Of a DNA stretch of 64,000 nucleotides, positions 19,402 through 41,744 are shown one piece after another (within the stretch, counting starts at the first letter, position 1; every line of letters begins with the position of its first letter). A model generated the notes under the pieces. It did no database searches. It had not been told where the DNA came from and saw only the letters and a program-made list of their open reading frames with translations. A program made the translations under genes and the position numbers. Source of the DNA: Candidatus Latescibacterota bacterium. GTDB taxonomy: Bacteria > Latescibacterota > UBA2968 > UBA8231. The stretch covers positions 1,152,001 through 1,216,000 of the forward strand of contig CBDCXV010000001.1 in the NCBI GenBank assembly GCA_965223905.1, read 5' to 3'.

Positions 19402-20011
19402 GATCGTGTCCTGGCTCGCCCATATCCCGCCGCGGCAGGGAGCCGCTTTTCAGGCCGGTCCATTTGCGGGTAACAATCGCGATTCAATCCGGGTGAGCTC
19501 ATCTGGGTGGGATTCTCTTCTCGGTTCGTTCTGGCCAGCCCGACTGCGATAATCCATTTCCGCACAGGAGCCAGGCATGGATGACAGGGAGCGGTATTAC
19601 TGGGACCTGACGGGGTACCTGATCGTCAAGGGAGTCCTCGGTCCGGAGGAGCTGCAAAGGGCCAACGAGGGGGTCGATTACTGTCTTCAACACCACGCCT
19701 TCGATCCGGTGATGGATTCCGCCCGCCAGTCGCGGGCCCTGGGCGGTTCGCAGCGGCGGGCCATCCAGGCCGACATGGTCCTGCTGACCCTGGAGAAGCC
19801 GCACTGCGATCCGTTCCGTGAGATGCTCGCCCACCCGCAGGTCGTCGCCCGGCTCAACGCCATGTGCGGGCCCGGGTTCCGGTTCGATCACGGCCCCCAC
19901 TTCATCGGCGGCGTCAAAGGGACGGAGGGCCTGGTAATGCACGGTGCCGGCGAACCCCACCGGCCCTACGTCGGTTACCACCACCAAGGCGGCGAGTCCC
20001 ACTGCCAGGGG

Positions 20012-21681
20012 CCTGAATCCGTGATCACTTCTATAGCAAATGGTCAAGTTTGATATTTAGCATGATCAGGCACTTCTCAACAGAGGATTTGGGTGTCAAC
20101 GACTCGCCATTACGGCTGATGCCGCTGTCGGTGGCTCTCGACGTCGGCTGGAGTCGCAAGAACGGGCATACAGGTGCCTTGCGTACGGCGGAGAGTCGAG
20201 TGCGGGTGAGATCGTCGCCTTCAGGTGCACACACGCAGGTAGGTCCGTCTCCAGACATCGAACCAGGGATTGAAACACCCGAAGCTGAGGCCGAAACGGC
20301 GCGCATGCCGGACCCAGCGGGCCGCTTGGTACATGAGATCGAGAAGGACGCTGCGGAGACGACGACGGCCGGCCTTTTTACGAAAAGCCACGTGCTTTTC
20401 GGGGGGCAGATTGCCGGACTCGCGCAGACCGATTTGGCCGCACAGGCGCAGAGCGTTGTAGGCCATCATGGCCAGCAGCAGCAGGAGCGCGTTGGTGGCG
20501 AACTTGCCCGACGGCAGGCGTTCCAGATCCAGGTCCGTTTTCAACTCGGAGTGGAATTGCTCGCAGGTGCTGTGCTCGCGGTAGAGCCGGATCACGTGCG
20601 CCGGCGGCGCCATCAGGTTGGTCCACCAGGTCTGCACCTCGATTTCGGGGATCAGCAGCGCCTGACCGTCGACGCTGATCGTGCGCCGCACGACCTCGTA
20701 AACGACGCGTTCGAAGGTGTCCTTGCGCTCGCACACCAGCGAGCCGGTGAAGATCTCCTTGCCGGGCCGCGGACAGGTGCGCTCGCCCAGGGCTTCGGCG
20801 TCCTCCAGCCAGGTCTGTTTCGATTCGCTGCGCAGGTTGCGTTTGACGATGAAGTCGGTCTTGGGAGTGCGGCGCAACTGCTGTACGGTGGCGATGTCGT
20901 CATGGGCGCTGTCCATGCGCACCAGCAGCTTTTCCTTGGTGATGCGGCGCGCCAGCCGCAGCGTCTCTCGAATAAAGTCCGGGGCTCCTTCCTGGGAGTG
21001 CTGACTGCCTTCGCGCAGCTGGCAGTTGAGCAGATACCCTTCCTCGCCCAGGTAGGCGAAGATCGGGGCAAAGCCGTCGACCTTCTTGTAGGTCCACGAC
21101 ACCCCTTGTTTTTTGGTGTGGGAGTTGTCGAACACCGACACGTCGATATCCAGCGCGATCCAGGGACCGTAGCGCCCGTCGGCGACTTCGTAACAGGGGG
21201 TGAGCGGCGGCGCGTGACGGGCCACCATGTCGGCCGACTCCTCTCGAATGGCGGTCTCCCCCTGTGCGCCCAAGCCATCGAGCCGCTGCCGCAGCGTGGC
21301 CGCCGACGGCACCGCATCCAGGCCCAGGGCCTGGGCGAAGAAGGGATCGGTGCGAAACGCTTCCACCGCCTCGAAATCCGGCTTGCCCAGCGCCAGCAAG
21401 CCGATCATCGACGTCATCACGTCGCCGTGAGAAACCTCGGGGCAGGGTCGCTCCGGCAAGAGGATTTCATCCACCCGCGCGGCCAAGCGCGTGCGTCCCA
21501 TCAAGGCCCCGATCAAGGCCAAGCCCGAATGCGAGGTCAGCGCTTCTTCGCCCTGCGTAACTTCATACGAAACCAGTCGCAATTCTTCACCTCCAAGGTG
21601 AGTGGATATCCTCCTCTAAGATAGCCCACATTCCCCTCGGAAAACCACCGAAAATCAAGCTCTGGACTTCACGGATTCAGG
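20012..21681 (-). mobile_element. IS1380-family insertion sequence (1670 bp)
   Basis: Perfect 13-bp TIR CCTGAATCCGTGA / TCACGGATTCAGG; 5-bp target duplication AGGGG. Confidence 0.92.
20221..21582 (-). CDS. IS1380-family transposase
   Basis: LTSHSGL, LDIDVSVFDNS, VRMDSAHD, CEQFHSELKTDLDLERLPSGKFATN. Confidence 0.9.
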   Translation of the reverse strand: MRLVSYEVTQGEEALTSHSGLALIGALMGRTRLAARVDEILLPERPCPEVSHGDVMTSMIGLLALGKPDFEAVEAFRTDPFFAQALGLDAVPSAATLRQRLDGLGAQGETAIREESADMVARHAPPLTPCYEVADGRYGPWIALDIDVSVFDNSHTKKQGVSWTYKKVDGFAPIFAYLGEEGYLLNCQLREGSQHSQEGAPDFIRETLRLARRITKEKLLVRMDSAHDDIATVQQLRRTPKTDFIVKRNLRSESKQTWLEDAEALGERTCPRPGKEIFTGSLVCERKDTFERVVYEVVRRTISVDGQALLIPEIEVQTWWTNLMAPPAHVIRLYREHSTCEQFHSELKTDLDLERLPSGKFATNALLLLLAMMAYNALRLCGQIGLRESGNLPPEKHVAFRKKAGRRRLRSVLLDLMYQAARWVRHARRFGLSFGCFNPWFDVWRRTYLRVCT

Positions 21682-22089
21682 AGGGGGTGACCGTCTCCTG
21701 GTTCCTGGCGGACGCGGGCCCCGGAGACGGGGGTTTCGCCTGCGTTCCCGGAAGCCACAAGTCGCGCGAGCCGATACCGCCGGGAGTGCGGTCGTGCGAC
21801 GCCGACATGGGCGTCGTCGAGCAGCCGGTGGTCGAAGCGGGGGACGTGCTGTTCTTCATGGACGGCGCCCAGACCCACGGCACCCTGCGGTGGAACGCCG
21901 ACCACGAGCGGCGCTCCATCCTGTTCAAGTACGCCGGCCGCACCGCCTCCCGGGGAGGGGCCTCGCGGGAGGTGTCCCGGCCAGAGCGCTACTGGCCCGC
22001 CGAGATCGTCGACGGCATGAGCGATGAGCAGCGGGCGGTGATGTTCGGGCCCTGCTCCGCCCCGGGGACGGACAAGGTGTTTCTGCGGG

Positions 22090-22145
22090 TGGATGAGGAC
22101 GGCACGGTCCGCGTCGACCGGAAGGACGGGTAGCCGATCAGGACC
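22090..22145 (+). repeat. 56-bp direct repeat (phyH 3' end), copy 1
   Basis: 50/56 identical to 23091-23146. Confidence 0.75.
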
Positions 22146-22327: not shown

Positions 22328-22597
22328 ATGAAAACTGTTTCTTTACAAATCACATATCGTAAGGGCAAACCATTCGCTGCCTATATTTACCTATCCCGCC
22401 AGAACGGCCAAAAAAGTGTCCGCACTGAAGTCATATCCGAGGATCTCCTGATTGACTACGCTCAGGACGAGACACCTCTTGGGATTGAAATAGTCTCTCC
22501 TGAAATGGTGAGCATTGACGAAATACAGGCAGTCTTTGATCGCTTGGGGCTTGGTAGACCATCACTTATAGAACTGGAACCACTTAAAGCAGCGTAG
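22328..22597 (+). CDS. DUF2283-like putative antitoxin
   Basis: AAYIYL..KSVRTE..LLIDY..PLGIEI. Confidence 0.7.
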   Translation: MKTVSLQITYRKGKPFAAYIYLSRQNGQKSVRTEVISEDLLIDYAQDETPLGIEIVSPEMVSIDEIQAVFDRLGLGRPSLIELEPLKAA

Positions 22598-23090: not shown

Positions 23091-23146
23091 TGGATGAGGA
23101 CGGCACGGTCGGAGTCGACCCGAAGGACGGTTAGCCTGTCAGGACC
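23091..23146 (+). repeat. 56-bp direct repeat, copy 2; contains the recombinase stop codon
   Basis: Diverged copy of 22090-22145. Confidence 0.75.
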
Positions 23147-24021
23147 GGGCGGGGCCCAACAGCGTGTCGAGTGGGCTCTCGATCCGCACCAGGTCCTTCC
23201 GCCGCACGTGGGTGTAGATCTCCGTCGTTTTGGAGCTCCTGTGTCCGAGGAGCTCCTGTATGTAGCGCAGATCGGTCCCCCCTTCGAGCAGGTGCGTCGC
23301 AAAGCTGTGTCTCAGGGTGTCCACGGTCACCCGCTTGCGGATTCCCCGCGGCGGCAACCGCACGGGAGAACACTTTCTGCACCGACCGTTCGGTGAGATG
23401 CCGTCCTTCCCGGGCTCCGGGAAACAGCCACGTCGACTGCCGGTACGCCTTCCAGTAGGACCGAAGATCCTCGAGAATCGACCTGGGCAGCAGGGTGTAG
23501 CGATCCTTGCGCCCCTTGCCCTGCTGCACGCGGATCAACATGCGATCGCTGTCGATGTCGCTCACCTTGAGACGCACGACCTCCCCCACACGCAGCCCCC
23601 CGGCATACACCAGGGCCAGGATGACCCGGTGCTTGGGATTCCGAAGGGAATCGAGCAGTCGCAGCATTTCCCGCTGGCTGAGGATTTCGGGAAGCTGGCG
23701 ACCGCCACGCGGCCTGCGCAGACCCTCCAGGGAGGCGGGCTGCTTAAGGACTTCCCCGTAGAGGAAACTGAGAGCACTGTATGCGATGTTGAAGGCGGAG
23801 CGGCTCACCCCGCGGTCGAGGAGCCATTCGAGGTGGGACCGCACCTCGTCATGCCGTTCCCCCCGGTAGTCCCGTTTCCACTGAAGGAATCGCCGGCAGT
23901 AGCCCATGTACGACTTCTGCGTTTTCCTCGCGTACCCCCTCAGCTTCAGCTCGGATTCGACCCGGTTCAGGGTGTCGACCTCTTCGTCGGTCAGGTCTGG
24001 ATGTCTCCGATAGCGCCGCAT
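23139..24021 (-). pseudogene. Tyrosine recombinase (N-terminal SAM-like domain plus XerD-like catalytic domain), frameshifted; putative cassette integrase
   Basis: [63 protein letters not shown]; one extra base in the C4 run at 23344-23347. Confidence 0.88.
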
Positions 24022-24216
24022 GGGCCCGGTTACTCCAAGGCAAAGGTTTGGCCCTGCCGTAGAGAAAGCCGTGCCAGTCCGACACGGAAACCCGAAATCG
24101 TCCTATCTGTCGCAACCGCAATGAGTTACGCCGGATATCCCGAATCGGGAAAATAGTTGCAACTGTTCACCCCGGCACGTACCATCGTATCAGATAAGTT
24201 ACACCCAGCGGCCATT

Positions 24217-24259
24217 ATCCGAACCATTTGTTCGGATGCAATCAGATATATGACATGGG
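24217..24259 (+). other. Putative attI-like primary recombination site
   Basis: Palindrome ATCCGAAC-CATTT-GTTCGGAT, then GATATATGACATGGG, which complements the right end of cassette 1. Confidence 0.6.
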
Positions 24260-24344
24260 TTGTCACAGTACCAGTGAAATTCGACAGAGGCAAAGCTGGC
24301 ACGGTTGAAATCATGAGCCTGCAGGCGCTGGAGAAAAAACTGAC

Positions 24345-24836
24345 GTGGATCGCGTAGCCGTATTCGCAGATGTACAGAATGTTTACTACACAGTTAAGCA
24401 GCAACATAATTGCCATTTCGACTATGGTTCTTTCCTCAGGGAGGCGACAGCCGGCCGGAAACTGGTGAAGGCAGCAGCCTATGCTATTGACAAAGGCGAC
24501 AGAAAGCAGGCCCAATTTCAGCAAATTCTGAAACGGCTCGGTTTTGAGGTAAAGCTCGCGCCTTATATTCAGAGAGCTGACGGCTCAGCCAAAGGGGACT
24601 GGGACGTGGGCATTACGGTCGATATGTTGGAGTACGCAGATCGCGTGGATGTCGCTGTCCTGGTTTCAGGTGACGGAGACTACGCGCCTGCAATTGACAA
24701 GCTAATCAAGGAATCCAAGGTATCCGTCGAGGTGTACGGTGTCCCAGGACTAACTGCTAGTCGTCTAATCGAATCGTCGACGCGATTTGTGCCAATTCAA
24801 GGAGATCTGTTGCTGCCTATTCCCACCACGTGGTGA
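24345..24836 (+). CDS. Cassette 1: NYN-domain (LabA/DUF88) protein
   Basis: VFADVQNVYY, KGDWDVGITVD, LVSGDGDY, VEVYG. Confidence 0.88.
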   Translation: MDRVAVFADVQNVYYTVKQQHNCHFDYGSFLREATAGRKLVKAAAYAIDKGDRKQAQFQQILKRLGFEVKLAPYIQRADGSAKGDWDVGITVDMLEYADRVDVAVLVSGDGDYAPAIDKLIKESKVSVEVYGVPGLTASRLIESSTRFVPIQGDLLLPIPTTW

Positions 24837-24926
24837 CGTGGAAGCGACACTGTTTGCAAAGCCATGCACGCTAACGCACTCTCGCGTCGCTACCTCTCCG
24901 CGTTGATCAGCCTTGGAGCAATCATA

Positions 24927-25030
24927 CCCACGTCATATATCACAGCAATTCACGCTGCCGCCATTCGGCGCTTGGCCTTCGGCAAGTCGCTTTCGCGACT
25001 TCGTGAATTGTGAGAACGTTATGTGACATG
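24927..25030 (+). repeat. attC-like cassette site 1
   Basis: GTCATATATC-N4-CAATTCACG...CTTGGCCTTCGGCAA...CGTGAATTG-N7-GTTATGTGAC. Confidence 0.8.
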
Positions 25031-25065
25031 CGAAAACCTGCTATTCTGTTCAGTATAGAAGCCGA

Positions 25066-25954
25066 ATGATCCTCAGAATCTTCATTGCCCTGTTCACTGC
25101 TCAAGTATGGTCACTACCCCAGAGCCAGGCTTGTACGCTAGAGGACAGCGCTATTATCCACAGAATTCAAAGTACCGACGTACTTGTGGAAGCCACTGTG
25201 CTGTCAACGGTGAAGGATACACTAGGTGCATACATCGTACCTAGGGAAGCAACGCTTTCCGTCCAACGGGCTCTAGTGGGTGGCCCGCTATCGGAAGTCA
25301 TACACATGGAGCTCGACTCAACGCTCACCGAATTTTCCTCCTGTCTCGATTTGTATCAGGGCTACGAGGAAGGTGACCATTTTCTTGTCTTCCTCAGTAG
25401 AAAGAAGGATCTGGACGTTTTCTGGGCAGCACCCCACGTTCGTCCCTGGGTCGTTGACTACGATCCTGTGGATCCGTCTATACTTGCTAGATACATAGAA
25501 CAGACCGTTGCGCAGGAGGTAGAGCCTATCGCCTTCAGCTTTGAGGGGCCAGACACGGTTGTCGCCGGGGCCCAATTCAGATCTCGACTCACTATCACGG
25601 AACCGTTTCGACGAAACGCTGAGGGTTAGGATACCTGCAGAGAGGACCCTAGAAACCAGTTTTGAGTTCACTTTCTTGATACAAAATCCTGACGGAGATC
25701 GCTTTCCAGCTGATCACCCAATACTAGTTACAATTAAGCCCGGCGAAACCAAGACTGTTGAGTTGGACGACGCCTTTGAGAAAGTGCCGGAAGGTCATTT
25801 CAAGTATGAGGGAACATTGTGGTTGCCCGGCAACAAGGATCACTCAATCGCATACCACAACCGACTGTTTTCCAGGTGGATGTCTGCTCTACCCACCTCT
25901 GTCGAGCCTTCTTCTTGGGGCAATGTCAAGCATAGTTACTCGTCTTCGCCATGA
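25066..25954 (+). CDS. Cassette 2: secreted hypothetical protein, frameshift near 25600, C-terminal PTSVEPSSWGNVK motif
   Basis: Signal-peptide-like N terminus; ORFs 25066-25629 and 25541-25954 join with a 1-nt indel. Confidence 0.6.
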
Positions 25955-25962
25955 CCTGTAAA

Positions 25963-26066
25963 CACGTCACATAACACCTCGGTTTGCGCTTCGGCGCTGA
26001 ACGCGCCTCGACCTTCGGCAACCCCTTTGGGGTTCGCAAACCGGAGAACGTTAAATGAACATGGGA
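25963..26066 (+). repeat. attC-like cassette site 2
   Basis: GTCACATAAC-N4-CGGTTTGCG...CTCGACCTTCGGCAA...CGCAAACCG-N6-GTTAAATGAA. Confidence 0.82.
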
Positions 26067-26128
26067 AAAACGGTTTTATTGCAGTCTATTACACTATATA
26101 CACCGGACATCTAACGAGTGTTTTAACT

Positions 26129-27121
26129 ATGGATATAGAACTTCGGAAAATAGTCTCTGCTATTAGAGATTATGCCGTAGAAAAATTCAGTGATGCAGAG
26201 TGGGTCGATTTTGGGTACGTAACCGAGGCTTCAGATTTGATTGAAAACCATCCTCGACTTTTGAGATCACTTGCTTTTAATGACGATGATTACAGCTACT
26301 GTGCTACACAGGTCGTAAATGAGGCACTGGAAGAGCGCCCCGAGAAAATTCAGGAAGTTGTAGAACACTTTGGCGTCGATCTTTGGCTTGAGGAAAAAGA
26401 TGAACGTCGCCATCAGAGAGTATTTACGGAAACCCGACCGCTTGTTCCTTCCCCACGCTTCTGGCGGGAGGGGTATTTCCGACTCTTCATCAGCCATTTA
26501 GCGGATCACAAAGCCAATGTCCAAAGGCTTAAGCGGGAACTGGAGAAGTGGGGAGTATCTGCATTCGTTGCCCACACAGATATTGAGCCCACTCGAGAGT
26601 GGCAATTGGAGATCGAAGCAGCACTCTTTTCGATGGATGCAATGCTTCCAGTATTGATGCCAGGATTTAAAGAGTCAAACTGGACAGACCAGGAAGTCGG
26701 TGTAGCAATTGGCCTTAGGAAACTTATTATTCCGGCTCGACGAGGTATAGATCCCTACGGATTTATAGGAAAATATCAAGGTTTTCAGGCAGATGGAAGG
26801 ACTGTCGGACAAGTAGCTGAAGATGTCGTTAAAATTCTGCTTAAGAGCGAAAAGACGCGAGCCCAGATAGTTAGAGGTTTATCAGCGCGGATTAAAGTTG
26901 AAGTCAACGATCAGGTTGTTACCTCACGCTTAAAATTGATTGATGAGTTGAAAATTTGGAGCAAAGAGCAGGTAAAAGAGATTCTTGAAAGCGTTCTCAT
27001 CCGAGGTGGTGAGATGGCAGAAGACGTACAGGTAGCCTTCAATGATCTACAGGCTTCGCATGGCGTTGTTATAGTGCCACCGAAAGTAACAGCCTTTGAT
27101 GACGATGACCTTCCTTTCTGA
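26129..27121 (+). CDS. Cassette 3: TIR-domain protein with AbiJ-N-terminal-like domain
   Basis: HPRLLRSLAFNDDDY N-domain; TIR motifs RLFISH, AFVAHTDIEPTREW, SNWTDQEVG; AT-rich. Confidence 0.82.
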   Translation: MDIELRKIVSAIRDYAVEKFSDAEWVDFGYVTEASDLIENHPRLLRSLAFNDDDYSYCATQVVNEALEERPEKIQEVVEHFGVDLWLEEKDERRHQRVFTETRPLVPSPRFWREGYFRLFISHLADHKANVQRLKRELEKWGVSAFVAHTDIEPTREWQLEIEAALFSMDAMLPVLMPGFKESNWTDQEVGVAIGLRKLIIPARRGIDPYGFIGKYQGFQADGRTVGQVAEDVVKILLKSEKTRAQIVRGLSARIKVEVNDQVVTSRLKLIDELKIWSKEQVKEILESVLIRGGEMAEDVQVAFNDLQASHGVVIVPPKVTAFDDDDLPF

Positions 27122-27134
27122 CAGCAAGAATATA

Positions 27135-27244
27135 TCCCACGTCATTTAACATCCCGTTGACGCAGCGCCGCCATACGGCGGCTTGGCCTTCGGCACCCTG
27201 GCTACGCCAGGGTCGTCAACGGAAGAACCGTTATACGAACTGAG
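27135..27244 (+). repeat. attC-like cassette site 3
   Basis: GTCATTTAAC-N3-CCGTTGACG...CTTGGCCTTCGGCAC...CGTCAACGG-N7-GTTATACGAA. Confidence 0.82.
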
Positions 27245-27291
27245 AAAACCGACCATCGTGAATCCGACGCGAATCAGACAAGGGTTTACGA

Positions 27292-28011
27292 ATGATCCTT
27301 GAAGCATTGAATGATCTTTTCACATCAGAATTGCTGGCTGCCCACCCTGAAGAATGGGGCGTGACCGATCATTGTGATGCGCCTTCCGGCGTAGGGTACG
27401 CGACCACGATTACGCCGAGGGCAATTTCGACGGCACTCGACCGCGGTGCCGACGTAATTGTCACGCATCATGACGCCTGGGATTTTATGTATGGACAAAG
27501 AGAGAAGGTATACGATCTCTTACGCGACAACAGCCTGACCCATGTGTGGGCCCGACTGCCGTTGGACCAGTCGGACTTTGGCACATCGGCCACGCTTCTC
27601 TCGAAAATTGGCTGCGTGGAGGTCTGTAAGCCATCGAAAGGTGAAGTACGCCTTGGTGAACTGGATGAATCAACTGACTTCGAGGCGATCCGTTTGAAGC
27701 TCGATTCCCTATTGCAGGACCAACCACGTAGCCTCCATGATTCGGGTCGAGCCATCCGCAGAATAGGCTGCGTGACTGGGGCTGGCGTCTACACGAGTTA
27801 CCTCAAGGATGCGATGCCCCATGGTATTGACCTTTATCTGACAGGAGAGACTAGCCTTTACTTATTGGAGTGTGCCGTCCACCTTGGACTCAGCGCCCTG
27901 GTTTACTCCCACAACTATACCGAGTTGCCAGGAGTCCATATGTTCGCAGAGCGTTTTTGCCAAGCTCTTCAACTCGAGATGAAGGGACACCTCGGTGACT
28001 CTCACTTCTGA
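27292..28011 (+). CDS. Cassette 4: Nif3-like dinuclear metal-centre protein
   Basis: DVIVTHH, LPLD, IGCVTGAG, YLTGE, SHNYTE. Confidence 0.8.
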   Translation: MILEALNDLFTSELLAAHPEEWGVTDHCDAPSGVGYATTITPRAISTALDRGADVIVTHHDAWDFMYGQREKVYDLLRDNSLTHVWARLPLDQSDFGTSATLLSKIGCVEVCKPSKGEVRLGELDESTDFEAIRLKLDSLLQDQPRSLHDSGRAIRRIGCVTGAGVYTSYLKDAMPHGIDLYLTGETSLYLLECAVHLGLSALVYSHNYTELPGVHMFAERFCQALQLEMKGHLGDSHF

Positions 28012-28024
28012 TTCGGGCGAGCGA

Positions 28025-28127
28025 CTCAATTCGTAACACCGCGGTGTTGCGCTGCGCCGCTGTCGCTCCTTGGCCTCCGGCAAGCCGGCAACGCCAGGTT
28101 CGCAAACCGTGAGACGTTATATGGAAT
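28025..28127 (+). repeat. attC-like cassette site 4 (partly degenerate)
   Basis: TTCGTAAC-N4-CGGTGTTGCG...CTTGGCCTCCGGCAA...CGCAAACCG-N6-GTTATATGG. Confidence 0.75.
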
Positions 28128-28134
28128 ATCTGAA

Positions 28135-28895
28135 ATGAGAAAAGAAGAATCAATCGACGGAGACTATCTGGCCCCAGCGAAATACGACAAATACTACGAC
28201 GCGTATGCTACGCTTCCAGAACGGTTTCTGGCTGACCTCGCCTCTCGCGGAAGGGTCCTTGAACTGGCATGTGGAACTGGCCGGATAGCAATTCCCATGG
28301 CGGAGAACGGCCTTGAGGTGACCGGGATCGATTATTCCGAGCCGATGGTAAGCCTTGCCAGATCAAAGGCCGAAGACAGACAGGTGAGGGTCGACTGGAT
28401 CCGCGACGATATACGCTGCTTTGACACCGGTAAACGATATGGGTCGATCTTGCTACTGCACAACGCATTATGGCACCTGCACAACCTTTCCGATTTCGAA
28501 GAGTGCATTCGCTGTGTGAAGCGTCATCTCCTTCCGGGTGGTTTCTTCATTTGGACGTCTTTGTCCCTGGGGTGGAGATCCTCAATCGCGACCCAGGCAT
28601 TCGGTACCCATTCTCTAGCTACACGGACGTTGACACGGGACAAGAAGTGCAGGTTACTCAGTCCTACAGGTATGAAGCAGACACCCCGATCGCGCGCATG
28701 GTGCACTACAGAAAGGACTCTGATGAGATCGTTGGGGGTCTGAATCTCCGGATGTATTTCCCGAAGGAACTGGATGCCTTGCTGAAGTACAACGGGATAA
28801 GGATCAAGGAGAAATTCGGGAGCTGGGACCGTGACCCCTTTGGGCCGGACTCCAGGCATCAGCTTTGTTTCTGCACCACCACGGAGGACGGCTGA
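28135..28895 (+). CDS. Cassette 5: class I SAM-dependent methyltransferase, frameshift near 28551
   Basis: VLELACGTGR, GIDYSEPM; continues in a second frame as LDVFVP..LRMYFPKELDALL. Confidence 0.8.
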
Positions 28896-28907
28896 GCAGC
28901 CGGAATC

Positions 28908-29005
28908 GCATATCGGATATCACTCCAATTCACCCGGCGTCGACCGCTCTCCTGAGGCTGTGCCCACCCCGCATGCGCGAGACCGGAATTGTGAGAAAGT
29001 CTGGG
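28908..29005 (+). repeat. Eroded attC-like site 5
   Basis: ATATC-ACTC-CAATTCAC ... GAATTGTGAGAA resembles the arms of site 1; core and GTT are lost. Confidence 0.45.
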
Positions 29006-29165
29006 GACCTTAGGATGAATTAGTCGCGAGATACGGGAGATAATTCAGGCATGGCCAACTTGAAGGACGGGCCCTTCGACAAGCGCGTCGATTACGACCC
29101 GGATAGCAATGTTCCTGTTCTGTCCCCGGCATACGCAGTGGACTTCGAAGAATTTCGAGAGGTAG

Positions 29166-29705
29166 GTGATGAAATCTGAATACGTGATGGCGTTGATTTT
29201 TCGAATTCTGGGCCTTCTGTTGGGACTTCAAGCAGTAGCCTTCATCCCGGGCATAATGTTGGCGACTTCAGAGCCGTTTTCCGGGGGTTCGCCAACATGG
29301 CCGCTCGTGATGCCTCAAGTGCTCGGATTGGTGCTGTGTCTGCCAGTAGCTTTCGTGTTGTTTCGCTACGGACGATGGCTTGCCAACCTCGTTGTGGGTG
29401 AAGACGAGCATCTGGAACTGGCGGGAGTGGCCGTAGAGACCGCCGATACCCTACCGGTTTTTCGTTTGCTCTTGCGCGTTGTTGGCGCATTCGTTGTTGC
29501 CTGGTCGGTGCCCGAGTTGGCCGGTCATGGTTTCGGCCACGTGATGCTGTACCAGATGAGCGGCCCGCAAATCTGGACTCAGATCGCCCCGGGCGTTGTG
29601 AAGCTGGCTATAGGCGTATATCTGCTCAAAGGTGGGACACACCTTGTACGCTTCGCGTACGGCTCCCAGGCCATATCCGATGACCCAGGAAATGACGAAA
29701 CCTGA
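29166..29705 (+). CDS. Hypothetical four-TM membrane protein
   Basis: Four hydrophobic segments; GAGG RBS. Confidence 0.7.
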   Translation: MMKSEYVMALIFRILGLLLGLQAVAFIPGIMLATSEPFSGGSPTWPLVMPQVLGLVLCLPVAFVLFRYGRWLANLVVGEDEHLELAGVAVETADTLPVFRLLLRVVGAFVVAWSVPELAGHGFGHVMLYQMSGPQIWTQIAPGVVKLAIGVYLLKGGTHLVRFAYGSQAISDDPGNDET

Positions 29706-29882
29706 TTACATGCCAGTCTGGAAAGGCATAAGAAAGTCGCTTCCGTGAGGAGGTCATTTGTCGTGTAACAGCGCCATTCCGGATGGAGCTTTCACCTTCG
29801 CCAGAATGCTTCCCAAGTTCGGGAAACCGGCCGACTTGCTGTGAGAAGTGCAAGATCAGATCACCAGGATCGAGGACTCCCG

Positions 29883-30190
29883 ATGTATGAACAGGACAGG
29901 TACGTATTTGACACCCAAGGTTACGTGGTGTGGTGCTTCCCGACATCCTCACTCATTCCGAGGTTGAGCGCCTCGTCGACGCCTTCCCAAGGGATGACAA
30001 GGGTCAGGTCATGCTCGAAGCTCCTGACGACAACTCACATCATGAAAACAGGATCCAGGGAAGGGTGCTCGATCATCGAGCTCTGATTGAGGCCAGCGTC
30101 ACCGGCTACCTGGGACGCAGCTGCATGAAGCATCCTGCCGCCTGGGACATCGGTTCCGTCGGTAGCCTGGGGCCCATCAGGATCGCCTGA
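29883..30190 (+). pseudogene. PhyH-family N-terminal fragment
   Basis: DRYVFDTQGYVV..LPDILTHSEV; frameshifted and truncated. Confidence 0.5.
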
Positions 30191-30271
30191 TAGGGCACTG
30201 ATTCTCACCGAATCCGACCGGTATGTCCTCAAGGCAGTAGGCGATTTGATTGGAAAAAGGGGGCCCTCGAT

Positions 30272-31015
30272 ATGCCAGGTTTCATGTCATGGAAGGAAAT
30301 GAACTGGCTTCTGCCTGACTTTAATGAGACCGGGTTGATCTACCACGGAAGTCAGCCTGAAAATCTGGCTTCTATCTTCCAGAATGGCCTGATTCCCCAA
30401 TGCAATAGTCCCAGAGATGGGCACGAAACAATCTACAATGCACACTACCGGTACCGGCCCAAGTCCATTCCAGACTGGGTGGATCCGAGACGATGTATTT
30501 TTGGTTACATGAACCGGGCCAGACAAGGAGGCTGGGGCGGCATTGTGGATGGAATAGTCAATGGTGTAACCATTGGCATTAAAGCAGCAGATCATATCAC
30601 TGAGCGGACCTGGACAGCCTGCGTCCGGTTTTCAGATATGGTGGACTGCCCGGAGGAGGCAGGGTACTTCGATACGGAGGAGAGAAAAGCCTTTTTCAAG
30701 GACAGAATGGAACCGGTTTCGTGTAAAGCATACTGGGAGACCAGCCTCTCATTTCACGATAACTTGAAGATTCGCCTGGATCATTTGCTCCCGATGCAGG
30801 GATATCATGAGCTATTGATTTGTTCGGAGATTGATCCTGGGTTACTAAATCTTCGAGGGTTCAGAGTGCGGGGGGCAAATGGAACACGCGAGGTTGTCAG
30901 CAATGACCTGCCCGAGGTGTTTCTGAATGCCGAAGAAAAGCTTCGGAACAACATGCCAATTGTGGGGGAACTGAAGGCCGTCAGCGAATTCTGCGGCCGT
31001 GCCGCCAGCGCCTGA
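30272..31015 (+). CDS. Hypothetical protein with an ART-like YHG(S)..NL.SI..GL.P N-terminal motif
   Basis: IYHGSQPENLASIFQNGLIP; 247-aa intact ORF. Confidence 0.6.
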   Translation: MPGFMSWKEMNWLLPDFNETGLIYHGSQPENLASIFQNGLIPQCNSPRDGHETIYNAHYRYRPKSIPDWVDPRRCIFGYMNRARQGGWGGIVDGIVNGVTIGIKAADHITERTWTACVRFSDMVDCPEEAGYFDTEERKAFFKDRMEPVSCKAYWETSLSFHDNLKIRLDHLLPMQGYHELLICSEIDPGLLNLRGFRVRGANGTREVVSNDLPEVFLNAEEKLRNNMPIVGELKAVSEFCGRAASA

Positions 31016-31206
31016 CAACAACGGTTTCCCTTTGAACTGCGGCGGTATTTGCACGGCCGGGCTCAAAGGTGCGTAACAACCCGGGGAGACCAGAGTCTGG
31101 TGACCGCACCCCTGAAAGAAATGCGGGCAGCTGTGGCGGCCATGAAAAACGCAGGTGGGTATTGGCCTGGAGCTGAACCCAACAACGCCAACGAGGAGTC
31201 CCGAGA

Positions 31207-31548
31207 ATGAAAGAGATTGCGCCCACACTTCCGGTATCGGATGTGGAGAAAGCTGTCGAGTTCTATCGGGACAAGTTGGCGTTCAGTGTCGGTTTCCAGA
31301 ATCATCCCGTCTTTGCTTTGGTTCGGCGCGGCGCTGTCAGTATCGGTTTGCAGCTTGCTTCGCAGCGACGGGCAGCCGGGACAGGAAGCTGCTACATCTG
31401 GGTGGATGATGTCAGGGAAATTTATAATGAGTTGTCCGCAAGAGGAGTTGAATTCGCAGATGACATCGCGTTTCGCGATGAATATGAAATGACCGACTTC
31501 GTCCTCCATGATCCGGATGGGAACCACATCGGGATTGGCGGTGACTGA
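31207..31548 (+). CDS. VOC / glyoxalase-bleomycin resistance family protein
   Basis: LPVSDVEKAVEFYRDKL, YIWVDDV, DPDGNHI. Confidence 0.88.
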   Translation: MKEIAPTLPVSDVEKAVEFYRDKLAFSVGFQNHPVFALVRRGAVSIGLQLASQRRAAGTGSCYIWVDDVREIYNELSARGVEFADDIAFRDEYEMTDFVLHDPDGNHIGIGGD

Positions 31549-31648
31549 GGGGGTCATGAATGCGAATCTGGCAGGTTCCATCGCCCTGACTCCACCTCTA
31601 AGGCCAATGGGGGTAAAAAGCGGACGTTCTTAGTGGAAGCTCGATTCC

Positions 31649-32413
31649 ATGGAACTGACCAGAGATGACATTGAAGCTGGCTTCCGTAATCTCGGCCTGA
31701 AGGAAGGCGAAACAGTTGAAGTTCATAGCTCATTGAGCAGCTTGGGCAATGTGCAAGGGGGAGCTGAAACTGTCGTGGATGCCTTGATGAGTGTCGTGGG
31801 CGAAAGTGGAGCGTTGGTGATGTCCAACTATCCGCTCACTCCCCCGATCCCTTTGACTTCCGAAGAGAAATCCAAGGGAATAGGTTGGAAACTCAGGATT
31901 CTATCCGAGGGCTCAGACGAAAGGACCGTGACCGGGGCCATTTCCGACGAGTTTCGCTTCAGAGCTGATGTTGTATGCGGTTCTGGGACCCGTCGTGTCT
32001 GTGCCTGGGGCCCGGATGCGGATTTGCACGCCAGGGGATATCGACACTTGCTCGAAGTCGATGGGCTAGTTCTTCTCCTTGGTGTAGACATAGACCGATG
32101 TTCAAGCATGCATCTCGCGGACGGTGTGAAGGTTACCAGGCAGGCCAGGAAGCGGATGAATGCATTATGGCCTGATTCAGGGTGCAAAATCACGGACGAA
32201 GTCAGGCGGGAATATCCTTCAGATATAATCATTGGCCCCAGGGAAGGGACATCTGGAAATCCTTGGGAAAATGCCAGGCAGGAAGCTGAAAGACGAGGAT
32301 TGATAAGGAGAGGTAAGGTCGGTCGAGCAGACTGCTTGCTATTCAGGGCGAGGGATCTAGTCGGTCTGATTGAGGAAGTTCGTAAATCTGGGCCTTTCAA
32401 AGACGCATTGTAG
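31649..32413 (+). CDS. AAC(3) / Antibiotic_NAT-family N-acetyltransferase
   Basis: EVHSSLSSLGNVQGGAETVVDAL, TGAISD, VLLLGV..CSSMHLA. Confidence 0.8.
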   Translation: MELTRDDIEAGFRNLGLKEGETVEVHSSLSSLGNVQGGAETVVDALMSVVGESGALVMSNYPLTPPIPLTSEEKSKGIGWKLRILSEGSDERTVTGAISDEFRFRADVVCGSGTRRVCAWGPDADLHARGYRHLLEVDGLVLLLGVDIDRCSSMHLADGVKVTRQARKRMNALWPDSGCKITDEVRREYPSDIIIGPREGTSGNPWENARQEAERRGLIRRGKVGRADCLLFRARDLVGLIEEVRKSGPFKDAL

Positions 32414-32624
32414 AACATTTAGACGAGGAATAAATGGCGTCAAGGGGTTTGGCGCTGTCGATGCTTCGAAGGCGGGGAGGAAGCGGCCGTCGTGGTTGCG
32501 GTACAGCCCCACAAGAAGGGGTGCCGCTGTCCTCAGTGTGGGCGCCGGGGCGCGTGATAGCTCAGCGCGGAGAAAGCAGGGCAAAGGTCCAAGACGAACC
32601 GCGGCGGTCCTGGCCGGAAAGACT

Positions 32625-34105
32625 ATGCAATACTTCCAACCTGATGGGGACTTTTTCGTCGGGACTGCTTCCTGTGTCGTGTGGGTCGAAACGATCGATA
32701 TGTTCTCCGGGACCATCTGCCCTTCTACCACGAAGGTGTCTTCCGGCTCTTCTACCTTCTGGACGAGGGCCACCACGGAGCACTCGGCGGGTTGGGAGGC
32801 CATCAATGGGCACAGGCCAGCACGACGGACCTCGTTCACTGGGAACACCATCCGCTCCAAGCATGCCATCCCGATCACCGAGGAACGTGAAGGTTCCATC
32901 TGCACCGGTTCGGTGTTCTTCCACGAAGGGACATACTACGGTTTCTACGCGACGCGCATGCGCGACAGGACGCAGCATCTGAGTCTTGCAACCAGTCGAC
33001 TGCATGCCCTTCTACCACGAAGGTGTCTTCCGGCTCTTCTACCTTCTGGACGAGGGCCACCACGGAGAAGGCCGACCCCAACCCCTTCGCCTCGCCGCCC
33101 ACCGGCTACGACCCTGTTCATTACCGAGACCCCATCGTCTTCAAGGATCGTTGTGAGGGGCTCTTCCACATGCTCGTTACGGCGTTCCTGGAAGACTGGC
33201 CCATCGGCGACCGCGGCGGATGCCTTGCCCACCTGGTCTCCCCCGACTTGAAACACTGGGAGAACAGAAAGCCGTTTATTGTCCCGGGTTTGCCGGGGGC
33301 GCCCGAATGTCCGGACTATTTCTTCTGGAATGGCTGGTACTACCTCATTTTCAGCAACCGTGGGGTTGCCCGCTACAGAATGTCGCGAGAGCCATTTGGA
33401 GCCTGGCTTCGGCCGAAGGTCGACACGCTTGACGGAAATGCCGCACGGGTAATGAAGACGGCGCCATTCGGGGACGGCAGGCGCCTTGGTGTTGCCTGGA
33501 TCGGCACACGCGAGAACAACCGGGACGATGGACCGTTTCAGTGGGGGGGCAACGCGGTTTTCCGAGAACTTGTACAGCATGACGACGGCACCCTTGGTGC
33601 GAAATTCCCGGACGAGCTGACCCCTTCCGGTGAGCCGTTGTCCGCCATGAACATGTCCGCCCTCCACCTGTCCGCGCTCGATGCCGATACGAGAGTTGAG
33701 GGACGCAGTGTCCACGCAGCAGCTCGGCAAGGCCTGGCAGCGGCCGGGTGCTCAGGCATTCCACGCAATGCGCGACTGGCAATCCGTGTCCTTCCTCAGC
33801 CAGGCCCCCTGGGTTTCGGGCTTCGTCTCAGGGCTGGTGAGCCCTTCGACTCCGGATACGACCTGCGCTTCTCACCCTGTGACCGGGTCGCCAGGCTGCA
33901 CGATCAGTGGATATATGGTGTCGATGGACTGGATCGCTCCTTCTCCCTGGAGATAGTTCTCAGGGACGACATCATTGACGTTTGCATCGACGGCCGCAGG
34001 ACGCTTGTCGATCGATGTCCGGAAAGGCGGGGCGACCGGATGCTGCTGTATGCGCAGGATTCCGGGGTCACGTTTGAGGTTGCCGAGATCGCTGCTCTGC
34101 CGTAG
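32625..34105 (+). pseudogene. GH32-like five-bladed beta-propeller glycosidase, scrambled
   Basis: HQWAQASTTDLVHW, SICTGS, YRDP and PECPD motifs; frameshifts and a 63-bp internal duplication. Confidence 0.7.
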
Positions 34106-34143
34106 CGCAAAGAGAATTGCGGGCCACACCACCCGCCACCAAT

Positions 34144-34200
34144 CCCCAACACCCGGGGAACAGAAGCTGGGGTTCACAAACAGACAGCCCGTTAGGCGCC
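34144..34200 (+). repeat. Right half of an eroded attC-like site
   Basis: GGGGTTCACAAAC..GTTAGGC resembles GGGGTTCGCAAAC..GTTAAAT of site 2. Confidence 0.4.
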
Positions 34201-34220
34201 AGTCGAGAAAACTCCCGAAC

Positions 34221-34775
34221 GTGAGACGGACGGCCACCAAAATCCCACTCAGGGTGCAGACAACGCGGTTGGAAACCTTCAACCGCGAACGTCACGACTG
34301 GCCGGTCTCCCTGCGCCGGAAGTGCTCGGCGGATTCAGGGCGAACCTGGGTCTTCACGGATGGTGGCGGTGATGGAAGGTTCGGGGCTGTCGTTGTGCGT
34401 CCGGGAATCGAAGAGCACCGGATAGCGGGACGGCGTGAGTCACGGGCAAACAGCGTGGTTGCCGAACTCGATGGGGTCGTGTTGGGTCTGGAGAATTGCC
34501 AACTGGGTGAGAGAATCACGATCGTGTCCGACTATCTGTGGACAGCTTACTATATCAACGGCTGGCGCCGCGTGCACAACCCCCGGCTGCGTGAAGGGGT
34601 TGTACAGGCGAGGACCTGTCTCGAAAAGCTGCGGGGCGCCGTGTTCGTGCATTACGCGCTGGAAACCGGGGGCGAATGTGCCTTCAGACGATGGAACGCT
34701 GTCGCTCATGACCTGTGTCAAAAGGACATGGTCGGGACCAACTCGCGTACTCGTTGGGACAAGACCAGCGCTTGA
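34221..34775 (+). CDS. RNase HI-like domain protein (start uncertain)
   Basis: WVFTDG, VAELDGV..GL, ITIVSD, NAVAHDL. Confidence 0.6.
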   Translation: MRRTATKIPLRVQTTRLETFNRERHDWPVSLRRKCSADSGRTWVFTDGGGDGRFGAVVVRPGIEEHRIAGRRESRANSVVAELDGVVLGLENCQLGERITIVSDYLWTAYYINGWRRVHNPRLREGVVQARTCLEKLRGAVFVHYALETGGECAFRRWNAVAHDLCQKDMVGTNSRTRWDKTSA

Positions 34776-34873
34776 GCGGAATCTCTCTCATGCCAGGGAG
34801 TGACTCTTAAGAGGTCGCCTTTCCCCGGTATTATCATTAGTCAGACACGTCACCTAAAAAGGAAACGCGCAAA

Positions 34874-35641
34874 ATGGGACACTGCTGGACGCTTGCCCTT
34901 GAACAGCAGACCGACCTGACCCCATCCCATGGCTCGGTTTCCGAGTTGGCGGCAGCGGTACGCCGAGGCGCGGATCTCAGGCTTTACATGACCACGGATC
35001 GGTACGAGGAAACCCTCTACTTCCAGCAGACTTATGCCGGTGAGAATGGCGCGTTCGCAGGGCTGATGAGCCACCACCACAGCTACGTGCACCGCGGCCA
35101 GGACATAGAGCAACCATACATCAGCATCTTCAAATACGACGACTCCGGGACCTTCTCCCACGTGAAGTGGATGTGGCGAGATATCCGCCTGGATGAGAGC
35201 CAGGCCTATCCGTACGGGATATATCGATGGTTTACCTGCGACCGCTGGCGAACCGTCTACGAGCACGATGCCGATGGCAGTCCCGTGCGCGGAAATCTGG
35301 AGGAACTGAAAGAGCATGTCCGGCTGGGGCACTCGGTTCAGGTAGGAGTCCGCCAACTGTTCGGTTTGGCCGAGGATACCACTGCCGGGCCATCGCACAT
35401 CTCGTTTGTCACCACGATGCAGCCGCTCATCCGGGATGGCCATGTGCAGTCCAACTGCGACCTCGTTGCGATAGGCGCCCCGAAATGGCCGTGCACCTGG
35501 CGCGACGGCCTCCATGTGGCAGTGATGCTCCCCTCCACGTCCGGTGAGATTCTCTGCTTCCTTGCCGAACCGGGGAATCTCCCGTTTAGACGGGTCATGC
35601 GCCGGCGCCCCATGCAGTGGATGGTGGCGGAGATGGAGTGA
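34874..35641 (+). CDS. Hypothetical protein
   Basis: 255-aa ORF with RBS, co-oriented with the array. Confidence 0.65.
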   Translation: MGHCWTLALEQQTDLTPSHGSVSELAAAVRRGADLRLYMTTDRYEETLYFQQTYAGENGAFAGLMSHHHSYVHRGQDIEQPYISIFKYDDSGTFSHVKWMWRDIRLDESQAYPYGIYRWFTCDRWRTVYEHDADGSPVRGNLEELKEHVRLGHSVQVGVRQLFGLAEDTTAGPSHISFVTTMQPLIRDGHVQSNCDLVAIGAPKWPCTWRDGLHVAVMLPSTSGEILCFLAEPGNLPFRRVMRRRPMQWMVAEME

Positions 35642-35719
35642 ACGCGCGAACCGTTGAATGAACCGCCAAACCCGGAGTAGGAACAGGAAGCGTTGCCGCC
35701 GGGAAACCAACCGAGGAAT

Positions 35720-36205: not shown

Positions 36206-36317
36206 TTCCACCATCCGCAAATACATCGGTATTCGCCTCGACGCTGATCAGGAGGTCCGAGGGCAGTTAATTGTTTGGGGATAATTGGTCCAAACCAGGA
36301 GACAGGGAGAAAAGGGA

Positions 36318-37776: not shown

Positions 37777-38007
37777 ACGTAGACCCTGGAATTTATGGCG
37801 AAGAAAGGAAGGAGCTCAGGGAAATTAGCCCCAAACCTCGTTCCTTCGGTTGCACCCCATCTTGTCCGGATCTGACCCCAAACGATGCGCATCGGTCTTA
37901 TTTCAGATACTCACTGCCCAGAGCGATGCTCCGCCTACCCAGTCGCTTTGGGCCAGGTATTCCGGGATCTCGATCTGACAGCCGGTCAACTCTCCACCCG
38001 GATCGTT

Positions 38008-38481: not shown

Positions 38482-38535
38482 AACCAGGGGAACACACTTA
38501 TTCCCTCCACGCAGGCTGAGAGGGTATTGAAGACT

Positions 38536-38706: not shown

Positions 38707-38737
38707 TTCAGATTCATGCCATCAAGGGGATCCTGAG

Positions 38738-41735: not shown

Positions 41736-41744
41736 TTTAGCTCC

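Follow-up and report, generated by a model that had tools for sequence, protein, structure and literature searches.

Candidate attC-type sites with branched tips in a chromosomal integron-like array beside an IntI-like integrase without the I2 insert

Four structured sites lying behind successive genes in a 64-kb stretch of DNA (the window, meaning the whole stretch analysed) raise the question of how a folded-strand recombination site could be chosen and processed when both site and enzyme lack the elements usually tied to these steps. In two accounts, the extra-helical bases of attC and the I2 insert on which they dock are held to define integrons and to explain strand choice as well as the exchange of a single strand (PMC7790495, PMC5027507). 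An earlier note on this DNA had described a branched layout around a fixed core and had proposed that a multiway junction or the core itself supplies strand selectivity. The layout is indeed present in all four sites: each opens with TAAC or, in site 1 alone, TATC, from which a spacer of 3-4 nt separates a 9-bp arm with CG at its end; hairpin 1, the core and hairpin 2 come next, and after a T the complementary arm leads through a spacer of 6-7 nt to GTTA. The claimed core, the 14-nt CTYGRCCTYCGGCA, is exact in each of them (24971, 26007, 27182 and 28069) with no other exact copy in the window, and a search allowing up to two mismatches has given 13 matches, compared with a mean of 6.02 and a maximum of 11 in 100 shuffles. 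As stated in the note, the arms of sites 1-3 carry no extra-helical base; the first arm of site 4 is 10 nt long with one extra G. Folded as single-stranded DNA, sites 1-3 form the arm and three inner hairpins on either strand (z-scores of -3.4 to -5.6), and site 4 folds no better than its shuffles (z of +0.55 and +0.15), by which it is judged to be partly decayed.

The locus begins with a gene for an IntI-like tyrosine recombinase without the I2 domain (23131..24021, minus strand), recognised by Pfam PF00589 and PF13495 and, in two pieces, by TIGR02249. Next to it lies a putative attI region (24022..24245, plus strand), delimited by alignment A4 and by border comparison, in which an 8-bp palindrome is followed by a 7-nt spacer and the crossover G; a weak R1 match falls there (24204-24260, 7.8 bits, E 5.6). 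The cassettes follow, all on the plus strand. Cassette 1 (24246..25018) combines an NYN-domain gene (24345-24836) with site 1 (24938-25021), whose parts are R'' TATC (24938-24941), arm (24946-24954), hairpin 1 (24959-24971), core (24971-24984), hairpin 2 (24985-25000), complementary arm (25002-25010) and GTTA (25018-25021). Cassette 2 (25019..26050) holds two overlapping reading frames of no Pfam family (25066-25629, 25541-25954) and site 2 (25972-26053), with TAAC at 25972-25975, the arms at 25980-25988 and 26035-26043, the core at 26007-26020 and GTTA at 26050-26053. In cassette 3 (26051..27230), a gene with AbiJ_NTD5 and TIR domains (26129-27121) precedes site 3 (27147-27233; TAAC 27147-27150, arms 27154-27162 and 27214-27222, core 27182-27195, GTTA 27230-27233), and in cassette 4 (27231..28116) a NIF3/DUF34-like gene (27292-28011) precedes site 4 (28034-28119; TAAC 28034-28037, 10-nt arm with the extra G 28042-28051, core 28069-28082, second arm 28101-28109, GTTA 28116-28119), the hairpins of which are imperfect. 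Cassette 5 (28117..29014) carries a SAM-methyltransferase gene in two overlapping frames (28135-28743, 28470-28895) and a degenerate site (28906-29014) with neither core nor GTTA, scored at 10.4 bits (E 0.81); a sixth degenerate site (29754-29853) reaches 7.7 bits.

The ends of these units can be read from several comparisons. The attI adjoins the integrase gene and is conserved in the genome of the window (G000) and in genomes G002 and G016, where it is kept up to CAG and the sequences diverge into cassette-specific DNA beyond (alignment A4); a second copy lies on contig C10. The same contig holds a second copy of cassette 1 (C10:1335334-1336118, 98.7% identical) in another array with different neighbours, and the two NYN cassette copies part exactly at G|ATA and after GTTA. 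Contigs of other public runs likewise show cassette 1 with other neighbours, and run X3 has yielded two contigs in which cassette 4 stands directly behind attI-like sequence, joined at 27230; site-to-site joints, with sides of 20-30 letters and repeats on both of them, and window parts of low contig depth have been set aside in this comparison. The R box extends across cassette boundaries: among 96 neighbour pairs, the 9 nt before TAAC are complementary at 6.23 of 9 positions to the 9 nt after the GTTA of the previous site, compared with 3.72 of 9 when the site's own downstream bases are used and 3.53 of 9 for random pairs. TATC sites come after GATA-ended sites in three of four cases, TAAC/GTTA ends are found in 81 of 110 sites, and R-box pairs are paired in 93.6%. 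Judged from sequence, the cassette borders lie at G|TT, and the four sites can be assigned to the attC type, within a chromosomal integron-like array composed of a divergent integrase, attI and single-gene cassettes. REP- or MITE-like repeats and terminators, which had also been considered, are ruled out by the cassette borders and the integrase synteny.

The covariance model has recovered 110 sites in six related genomes, with an array beside the same integrase in each and with arrays of 50 kb and more among the relatives. Pairing has been counted on 111 model hits and most other site features on the 110 sites. Among the 111 hits, 91.8% of cells are paired, compared with 71.6% after shuffling (reached by none of 500 shuffles) and 29-45% with slid partners; the corresponding values for the 10 core-type sites of G000 are 88.8%, 76.3% (again none of 500) and 26-40%. 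The arms had been noted to differ between sites and yet to stay complementary, and this has been borne out on the expanded set, in which the arm and both hairpins covary strongly: in the alignment fitted to the model, compensatory changes support all 9 arm pairs, all 5 pairs of hairpin 1 and all 6 of hairpin 2, and in the MAFFT-only alignment A2 they are seen in 5 of 9, 3 of 5 and 6 of 6. Since the sites are mutually related, the counts given here, like the Wilcoxon p-value, overstate independence. RNAalifold on a plain MAFFT alignment of 25 sites has recovered hairpin 2 alone because the arms were misaligned, and the structure was therefore set by hand on A2 and realigned with the model. A scan of the window with Rfam, which the note had suggested, has given no match at gathering score.

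Across the family, the arms are free of inserted bases in 91 of 110 sites, and one extra base is found in the classical (R''-L'') arm of 16. The central spacer is lopsided, with 4 nt on one arm in 99 of 111 hits and 7 nt (85) or 6 nt (20) on the opposite arm, so that the two sides differ by +3 in 78 sites and by +2 in 19. The tip is more variable than the four sites of the window suggest: a long linker with a variable third mini-hairpin is present in 59 of 110 sites, the mini-hairpin is absent and replaced by a 7-9 nt linker in 51, and the 14-nt core is exact in 23. The idea that a fixed core, conserved in homologous arrays, is a general requirement has thus not survived the comparison.

A pronounced strand bias has been found in the loops. 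The motif GCGN(N)AGC occurs 86 times on the bottom strands of the sites (in 67 of 110) and never on the top strands, and C-GNA-G occurs 263 times on the bottom and 21 times on the top strands, whereas outside the sites the respective counts are 86 versus 64 and 484 versus 461. The core itself, on the bottom strand, reads GCC-GAA-GGC. Folding predicts the bottom strand to be the more stable one in 88 of 110 sites; counts of G.T versus A.C in the helices, used as a further strand test, show no bias (52 versus 53). On the loop bias and the predicted stability, the bottom strand would most likely be the one that folds and recombines. The proposal that junction or core selects the strand is hence retained in part, as such a role is plausible through bottom-strand G-N-A loops and the lopsided spacer and not through a fixed sequence.

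The neighbouring enzyme has been compared with known integrases at several levels. Its TIGR02249 match covers profile positions 2-181 and 254-315 and leaves 182-253 unmatched, and in the alignment with its best solved relative, VchIntIA (E 2.9e-45), residues 179-238 of the latter (60 residues) correspond to 18, so that the I2 insert is absent. Intact orthologs match in two stretches at 223.6 and 230.7 bits, below the cut-off of 265, and retain all catalytic residues (R, K, H, R, H, Y). In the tree, the integrase and IntI fall together, separated from two host Xer proteins (98/96), and canonical IntI forms a clade of its own (100/100) that excludes the window enzyme. Relative to the intact G002 ortholog, the window copy has a frameshift near codon 226 and a His-to-Asp change in HxxR, and the G004 copy has a stop codon, for which reason the arrays could be relics. 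Site anatomy, covariation, borders, synteny, absence of the insert and loop bias have all been computed directly.

The association of sites and enzyme has to be weighed against the view, unlikely in our estimation, that ordinary attC sites are served by a canonical IntI, lost or acting in trans, and that the insert-less neighbour is a bystander, for instance a Xer-like enzyme or an integrase belonging to a different mobile element such as one of IS91 type. Of 168 genomes from the phylum, 17 encode canonical IntI above the cut-off, some of them in the same family, and these enzymes could act in trans; numerous model hits belong to arrays without a nearby integrase (C10 of G000, G010:487-540 kb, G023:C3:289-363 kb); distant homologs on plasmids occur in multiple copies, 6-8 in each record; and Cury et al. 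2016 argue for a bystander role of recombinases without the IntI region. Yet the same gene stands beside attI and the first cassette in all six genomes examined, with the first model hit 0.65-2.3 kb from the divergent integrase start in G000 and in all five relatives that hold an ortholog. The integrase gene is single-copy in G000, where a TIGR02249 search (genome 93.6% complete) has found no other match, and no transposase adjoins it in G002. Five 20-kb loci around canonical IntI contain no model hit, compared with 12 and 1 around insert-less integrases; G021 encodes a canonical IntI, the position of which is also the only one matched by the insert-less query in that genome, and the model again has no hit there. 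A perfect-stem scan near canonical IntI genes has found no arrays, a result that applies to unbulged sites, since bulged ones would escape the scan and cassettes may still exist there. At 80 loci of distant homologs, sites with an equally lopsided spacer occur, 107 on the integrase strand versus 10 on the other.

We give still less weight to a Xer-like enzyme recombining double-stranded core sites, the palindromy then representing two inverted binding arms. The enzyme aligns end to end with XerA and lacks the insert, regarded in PMC7790495 as the innovation behind recombination of single strands. Duplex binding by one protein, however, gives no explanation for arms and hairpins that vary freely in sequence and stay complementary, nor does it fit the strong strand bias of the loops, which flanking DNA does not show. 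Least probable of all, and hardly credible to us, is a function of the branched fold in the cassette mRNA as terminator, stabiliser or translation control. The sites do follow co-oriented genes at their 3' ends and would be transcribed, and their hairpins are rich in G+C, but the stable loop motifs are on the strand opposite the genes, Rfam has no match in the window, and the R-box partner is found at the start of the site's own cassette, at a distance that can exceed 1 kb, as expected of a circular DNA cassette but not of a transcript end.

The four sites are therefore likely, in our view, to be attC-type elements in a small and decaying integron-like array of the chromosome, recombined as folded strands by the neighbouring insert-less IntI-like enzyme. 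The array would comprise the divergent integrase gene, attI and five to six single-gene cassettes, and each site would be read as a folded single strand, probably the bottom one. The R box, TAAC/GTTA, would extend to about 14 bp once the cassette is excised. Beyond it would come the unpaired spacer, roughly 7 nt long on the arm that bears AAC and roughly 4 nt on the opposite one, and then a 9-bp L arm of free sequence closing with conserved C-G and G-C pairs. Small hairpins would meet directly atop this arm in a three- or four-way junction, with the 14-nt core as the middle one. Exchange is expected at G|TT, the same as in classical integrons. For the strand that folds in the cell, the acting enzyme and the role of the junction, we infer that strand choice derives from two features, the lopsided spacer and G-N-A loops stable on the bottom strand only, extra-helical bases being uninvolved, and that the cognate recombinase is the neighbouring enzyme, exchanging strands without the I2 domain on which such bases dock. 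A bolder extension, which we put forward tentatively and would not yet favour, is that an insert-less lineage beside canonical IntI runs large arrays alone, that the lopsided spacer and a junction of bottom-strand G-N-A mini-hairpins exactly 9 bp above it replace the extra-helical bases, and that the junction, not the insert, selects the strand and blocks a harmful second exchange; single-strand cassette recombination would then predate I2 or have no need of it.

This insert-less IntI relative stands beside arrays that reach about a hundred sites, most of which have no extra-helical bases, and a literature search, with most subscription journals outside its reach, has returned neither insert-less IntI relatives with cassette arrays nor G-N-A loops in attC. 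If the enzyme is active, the system would offer a natural test of cassette recombination before or without I2, compact strand-specific DNA hairpin sites for engineering, and, because current finders require the insert, a wider range of genomes to search for cassette arrays. If it is inactive, the sites still constitute a well-defined, lineage-specific attC family.

One close counterpart is the sedentary chromosomal integron with long attC sites, as in the superintegron of Vibrio cholerae, with which the locus shares the integrase, attI, co-oriented promoterless cassettes and sites that are alike within an array, and with the VCR in particular the RYYYAAC/GTTRRRY-type ends, exchange at G|TT, and a folded hairpin with an unpaired central spacer and a branched tip. 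The earlier description as unlike a simple attC hairpin holds for the branching and for the 91 sites without an extra arm base, but branching sets the sites apart less than supposed, as PMC2727003 and PMC5027507 report complex branched variable terminal structures for VCR and other chromosomal attC. In VCR, according to PMC2727003, the R''-L'' arm carries three extra-helical bases and the spacer contributes 5 nt to either arm, whereas here most sites have no extra base, the spacer measures 4 versus 7 nt, its extra length falling on the other arm, the 9-bp L arm leads straight into the junction and the integrase is without the insert. For class 1, a plasmid locus with three cassettes beside intI1 (L121) has been read in the same way as a control. 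It shares the TAAC...GTTA ends, the C before GTT and, in two of three sites, bottom-strand loops of G-N-A type; it differs in an extra base after the third L'' pair in all three sites, in spacers of 4-5 versus 4-6 nt, in tips that are simple hairpins, and in an IntI1 that is about 44 residues longer than the window integrase over the aligned span. Among integrases, IntI is the best-scoring family (TIGR02249) and provides the best solved relative (VchIntIA, 2a3v), and catalytic residues are intact in the orthologs; the window enzyme differs in scoring below the 265-bit family cut-off, in having 18 residues in place of VchIntIA 179-238, that is, no I2 additional domain near patch III, and in its position outside the canonical IntI clade. 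With respect to what characterises attC, the two or three R''-L'' extra-helical bases and the 5-6 nt of unpaired spacer on each arm are lacking, and the pairing core ends, the G|TT border and the conservation of L-box pairing over L-box sequence are found. Taken as a whole, the locus has the composition of an integron platform: an integrase, an adjacent attI and cassettes that each end in a site.

The four repeats of the window (sites 1-4 at 24938-25021, 25972-26053, 27147-27233 and 28034-28119) match exactly the layout proposed in the earlier note, in which two complementary arms between TAAC or TATC and GTTA enclose two hairpins and a middle segment of 14 nt (the core); the core is exact in 4/4 sites and occurs nowhere else in the window. 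As single-stranded DNA, sites 1-3 fold far better than shuffled sequences on either strand, forming a closing arm and three inner hairpins; site 4 folds no better than its shuffles. The Rfam search proposed together with this layout gave no match in the window. With a covariance model derived from 10 sites in the same genome (G000), 26 places were detected there at E up to 0.01, and 15, 98, 45, 95 and 29 places in five related genomes carrying an ortholog of the integrase (150 candidates scored per genome). An alignment of 111 hits from the arrays of these six genomes has been used, from which one reverse-strand duplicate was dropped for our own counts (110 sites). The arms, claimed to stay complementary while differing in sequence, indeed do so, with compensatory change in 9/9 arm pairs of the 111-hit alignment, and likewise in 5/5 pairs of hairpin 1 and 6/6 of hairpin 2; paired cells amount to 91.8% compared with 71.6% in shuffles (observed value reached by 0/500) and 29-45% with slid partners, figures that are biased towards structure, since the model guided the alignment and the sites are related. 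The same trend in compensatory change has been obtained with a MAFFT-only alignment. The fold of the sites is under selection.

The core itself, which had been called fixed, is not so in homologous arrays. It is exact in 23/110 sites of the six genomes (10/25 in G000, 2/5 in G002, 5/47 in G004, 1/17 in G012, 3/4 in G016 and 2/12 in G020), and within the window its four copies offer no variation that would test its pairing. Hairpins 1 and 2 are separated by a long linker in 59/110 sites and by just 7-9 nt in the remaining 51. A stem of at least 3 bp is possible in 52 of the 59 long linkers compared with 23% of shuffled linkers, the stems being GCC/GGC (35), GCCC/GGGC (4), GGC/GCC (2), TCCC/GGGA (1) and others. 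Because the exact core is this infrequent, the linker stems vary and short-linker sites exist, the core is a recurrent third mini-hairpin, typical of the lineage, and is neither fixed in sequence nor required.

Complementarity also extends across cassettes. The 9 bases 5' of TAAC are complementary to the 9 bases 3' of the previous site's GTTA at 6.23/9 positions (96 neighbour pairs, six genomes), compared with 3.72/9 when the site's own downstream bases are taken instead and 3.53/9 in random pairs, as is expected if a cassette circularises at G|TT. The three variable positions adjoining TAAC are paired in ~80% of cases with all four pair types in use, and the cross-cassette pairing makes the R box about 14 bp long. 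Position 11 holds a conserved C.A mismatch on the top strand in 67/96 pairs, which is a T.G wobble on the bottom strand; the mismatch, judged by eye, results from ATG after GTTA facing CAC at the matching bases 5' of TAAC. By eye, most sites have this conserved ATG 11-13 bases past GTTA (at window 25028-25030, for instance). The exchange point is delimited by a second copy of the NYN cassette with site 1, 98.7% identical, in another array of G000, as agreement of the two copies begins at G|ATATATGAC and ends directly after GTTA. Sites starting with TATC are preceded by GATA-ended sites in 3/4 cases and end themselves in GTTA or GTTT in 8/8, a pattern that puts the exchange point between G and its 3' neighbour. 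The sequence from the integrase to the first cassette (attI) is conserved up to ...CAG and diverges immediately thereafter (G000, G002, G016). In contigs of other public runs, cassette 1 has different sequences on either side, and in run X3 cassette 4 lies directly behind an attI-like end in two contigs, with the junction at 27230; being assembled contigs, these show presence only. The four sites are cassette recombination sites of attC type, belonging to an integron-like platform.

The attI region (24190-24249) resembles a reduced site: TAAC and a spacer lead to an 8-bp palindrome (ATCCGAAC / GTTCGGAT), which a 7-nt spacer separates from the crossover G. The covariance model matches it weakly on either strand (7.8 and 7.0 bits). 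Another attI-like region, likewise followed by the NYN cassette, has been noted on another contig of the genome (L011, G000:C10:1667838-1670895), where one integrase query found no integrase gene and the cassette's site is broken within the R'' box by a ~2.1 kb insert.

A pronounced strand signal is found in the loops. All three hairpins have loops of TTC, TGC, TAC, ATTC or ATAC on the top strand, which become GAA, GCA, GTA, GAAT and GTAT on the bottom strand; the core there forms a GCC-GAA-GGC hairpin. GCGN(N)AGC, of which the consulted part of PMC13037366 speaks as a DNA mini-hairpin of extraordinary stability, occurs 0 times on the top and 86 times on the bottom strand of the sites (67/110 sites), compared with 86 and 64 times in 97,120 bases outside them. 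The wider motif C-GNA-G, with d(GNA) loops being a subject of PMC3201870 as far as its excerpt goes, is counted 21 times on top and 263 times on bottom within sites versus 484 and 461 outside (97,120 bases). Folding predictions with DNA parameters make the bottom strand the more stable one in 88/110 sites, by 1.0 kcal/mol on average. As an excerpt of PMC2727003 places a GAA triplet at the bottom-strand tip of attCaadA1, the G-N-A loop is a trait common to classical sites that is multiplied here.

The tyrosine recombinase gene next to the array (23131-24021, minus strand, PF00589 and PF13495) matches TIGR02249, the model for integron integrases, over two separate parts of the profile (positions 2-181 and 254-315). 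Compared with the intact G002 ortholog (293 aa, 97% identical), the window copy carries a frameshift near codon 226 and a His to Asp exchange in the HxxR motif. Provided that the frameshift is not due to misassembly, this copy appears inactivated. For intact orthologs the match is again in two stretches, scoring 223.6 and 230.7 bits at a cut-off of 265. Among solved structures, the best relative is VchIntIA (query 21-187 aligned to chain 9-178, 206-285 to 239-318), which has 60 residues where the query has 18, whereas XerA aligns end to end; IntI1 and IntI2 have about 44 residues more over the same span. The stretch missing from this insert-less integrase is the I2 helix region. MacDonald 2006 and Messier and Roy 2001 are said to be the sources behind the docking of extra-helical bases by the I2 helix in Escudero et al. 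2020. This docking is stated, citing others, in the portion consulted of PMC7790495 (Escudero et al., 2020). A 32-protein tree unites the 13 canonical IntI in a single clade (100/100), with 17 insert-less proteins branching beside it without resolution, and separates both groups from two host Xer proteins (98/96); with its long Xer branches and the insert columns kept, this tree does not distinguish loss of the insert from ancestry.

The integrase is linked to the arrays by its position. G000 and 5/5 ortholog-bearing relatives have their first site 0.65-2.3 kb away from the start of the divergently oriented integrase gene, and G000 holds neither a further TIGR02249 match nor a second copy of this gene. 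Canonical IntI genes above cut-off are present in 17/168 genomes of the phylum, the same family included. Five 20-kb loci around canonical genes gave 0 covariance-model hits and two loci around insert-less genes gave 12 and 1; 0 hits were likewise obtained in G021, which has a canonical IntI and matches the insert-less query only at that same place. G079, from the same class, has at least two places (G079:C1:2493564-2495430 and 2158606-2160115) where an insert-less integrase gene comes ~400 bases after a canonical IntI gene. At E up to 1e-20, the integrase protein has >7,900 relatives, whose names read 'tyrosine-type recombinase/integrase' or 'site-specific tyrosine recombinase/integron integrase'. 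In the 80 loci of homologs from many phyla (43-56% identical), a simple scan for the lopsided layout yielded 107 sites on the integrase strand versus 10 on the other, with at least 3 sites in 15/80 loci, and the two loci that were read (Desulfitobacterium and Ignavibacteriota) follow a like cassette logic. In the sections consulted, Cury et al. (2016) examined recombinases that lie near attC sites but lack the IntI-specific region, and judged them not to be IntI, and Ghaly et al. (2022) describe an additional domain in archaeal IntI. Our literature search found no description of insert-less IntI relatives beside cassette arrays.

On the plus strand 3' of the integrase, single-gene cassettes follow from 24246: an NYN-domain gene and site 1, two overlapping ORFs without Pfam family and site 2, an AbiJ_NTD5 + TIR gene and site 3, a NIF3-like gene and site 4, and a methyltransferase gene. 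In cassette 2, the ATG at 25028-25030 starts, by eye, a 13-codon ORF whose stop overlaps the main ORF start (ATGA). The protein of cassette 3 (26129-27121) matches retron-TIR and Thoeris ThcB4 models weakly and is a candidate anti-phage gene borne as a cassette. The methyltransferase (28135-28895) is divided between two overlapping frames (202 and 141 aa); this points to a frameshift and is consistent with an array in decay. From 29100 to 42000, small low-G+C genes of cassette type without recognisable sites lie mainly on the plus strand (glyoxalase/bleomycin-resistance-like, aminoglycoside 3-N-acetyltransferase family, two NUDIX, nucleotidyltransferase, AAA_33 kinase, DUF6602) and may represent the decayed distal part of the array. 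G+C is 49-59% at 22 to 42 kb versus 67-70% in most of the 20 kb upstream; it is lowered at 8-12 kb too and reaches 59-66% past 42 kb. Two direct copies of one insertion sequence (8949-10531 and 42329-43914, 99.8% identical, with at least 13 more near-identical copies in the genome) flank ~32 kb containing the entire integron-like region, which could be a composite element. A second insertion sequence (20011-21682; DDE_Tnp_1_4 transposase, 453 aa; four more copies at 99.8-100% identity, others at 87-92%) interrupts a phytanoyl-CoA-dioxygenase-like gene (19577-20053 and 21687-22133) that is unbroken in G002 and directly adjoins the integrase gene there. The final ~40 bases of this gene (22094-22134) recur 1 kb downstream (23094-23134), and the repeats enclose an insert with a DUF2283 ORF (22328-22597) that is not in G002.

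As to known systems, the sites had been called branched and unlike a simple attC hairpin. Branched they are; the consulted parts of PMC2727003 and PMC5027507 (Bouvier et al., 2009; Nivina et al., 2016) describe terminal structures of VCR and other chromosomal sites that can be complex and branched, so branching as such is already known and does not set the sites apart. The same parts give classical attC extra-helical bases on the R''-L'' arm and a spacer of ~5-6 nt per arm. Here, the 5' spacer is 4 nt in 99/111 hits and the 3' spacer 7 nt in 85/111 and 6 nt in 20/111, compared with 4-5 nt and 4-6 nt, respectively, in three class 1 attC sites of one plasmid. An extra arm base, present in the L'' box of 3/3 of these control sites, is absent in 91/110 sites here; in 16/110 the classical arm contains one, which in 12 cases is the G also found in site 4. 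The surplus unpaired bases thus lie on the arm bearing the cleaved AAC (bottom strand), opposite to the classical arrangement. For sites and enzyme alike, mechanism and activity are inferred. Compared with classical attC, the sites are unusual in nearly lacking the classical extra-helical bases, in their lopsided spacer, in the multiplied G-N-A hairpins of the bottom strand and in having an insert-less IntI relative as neighbour.
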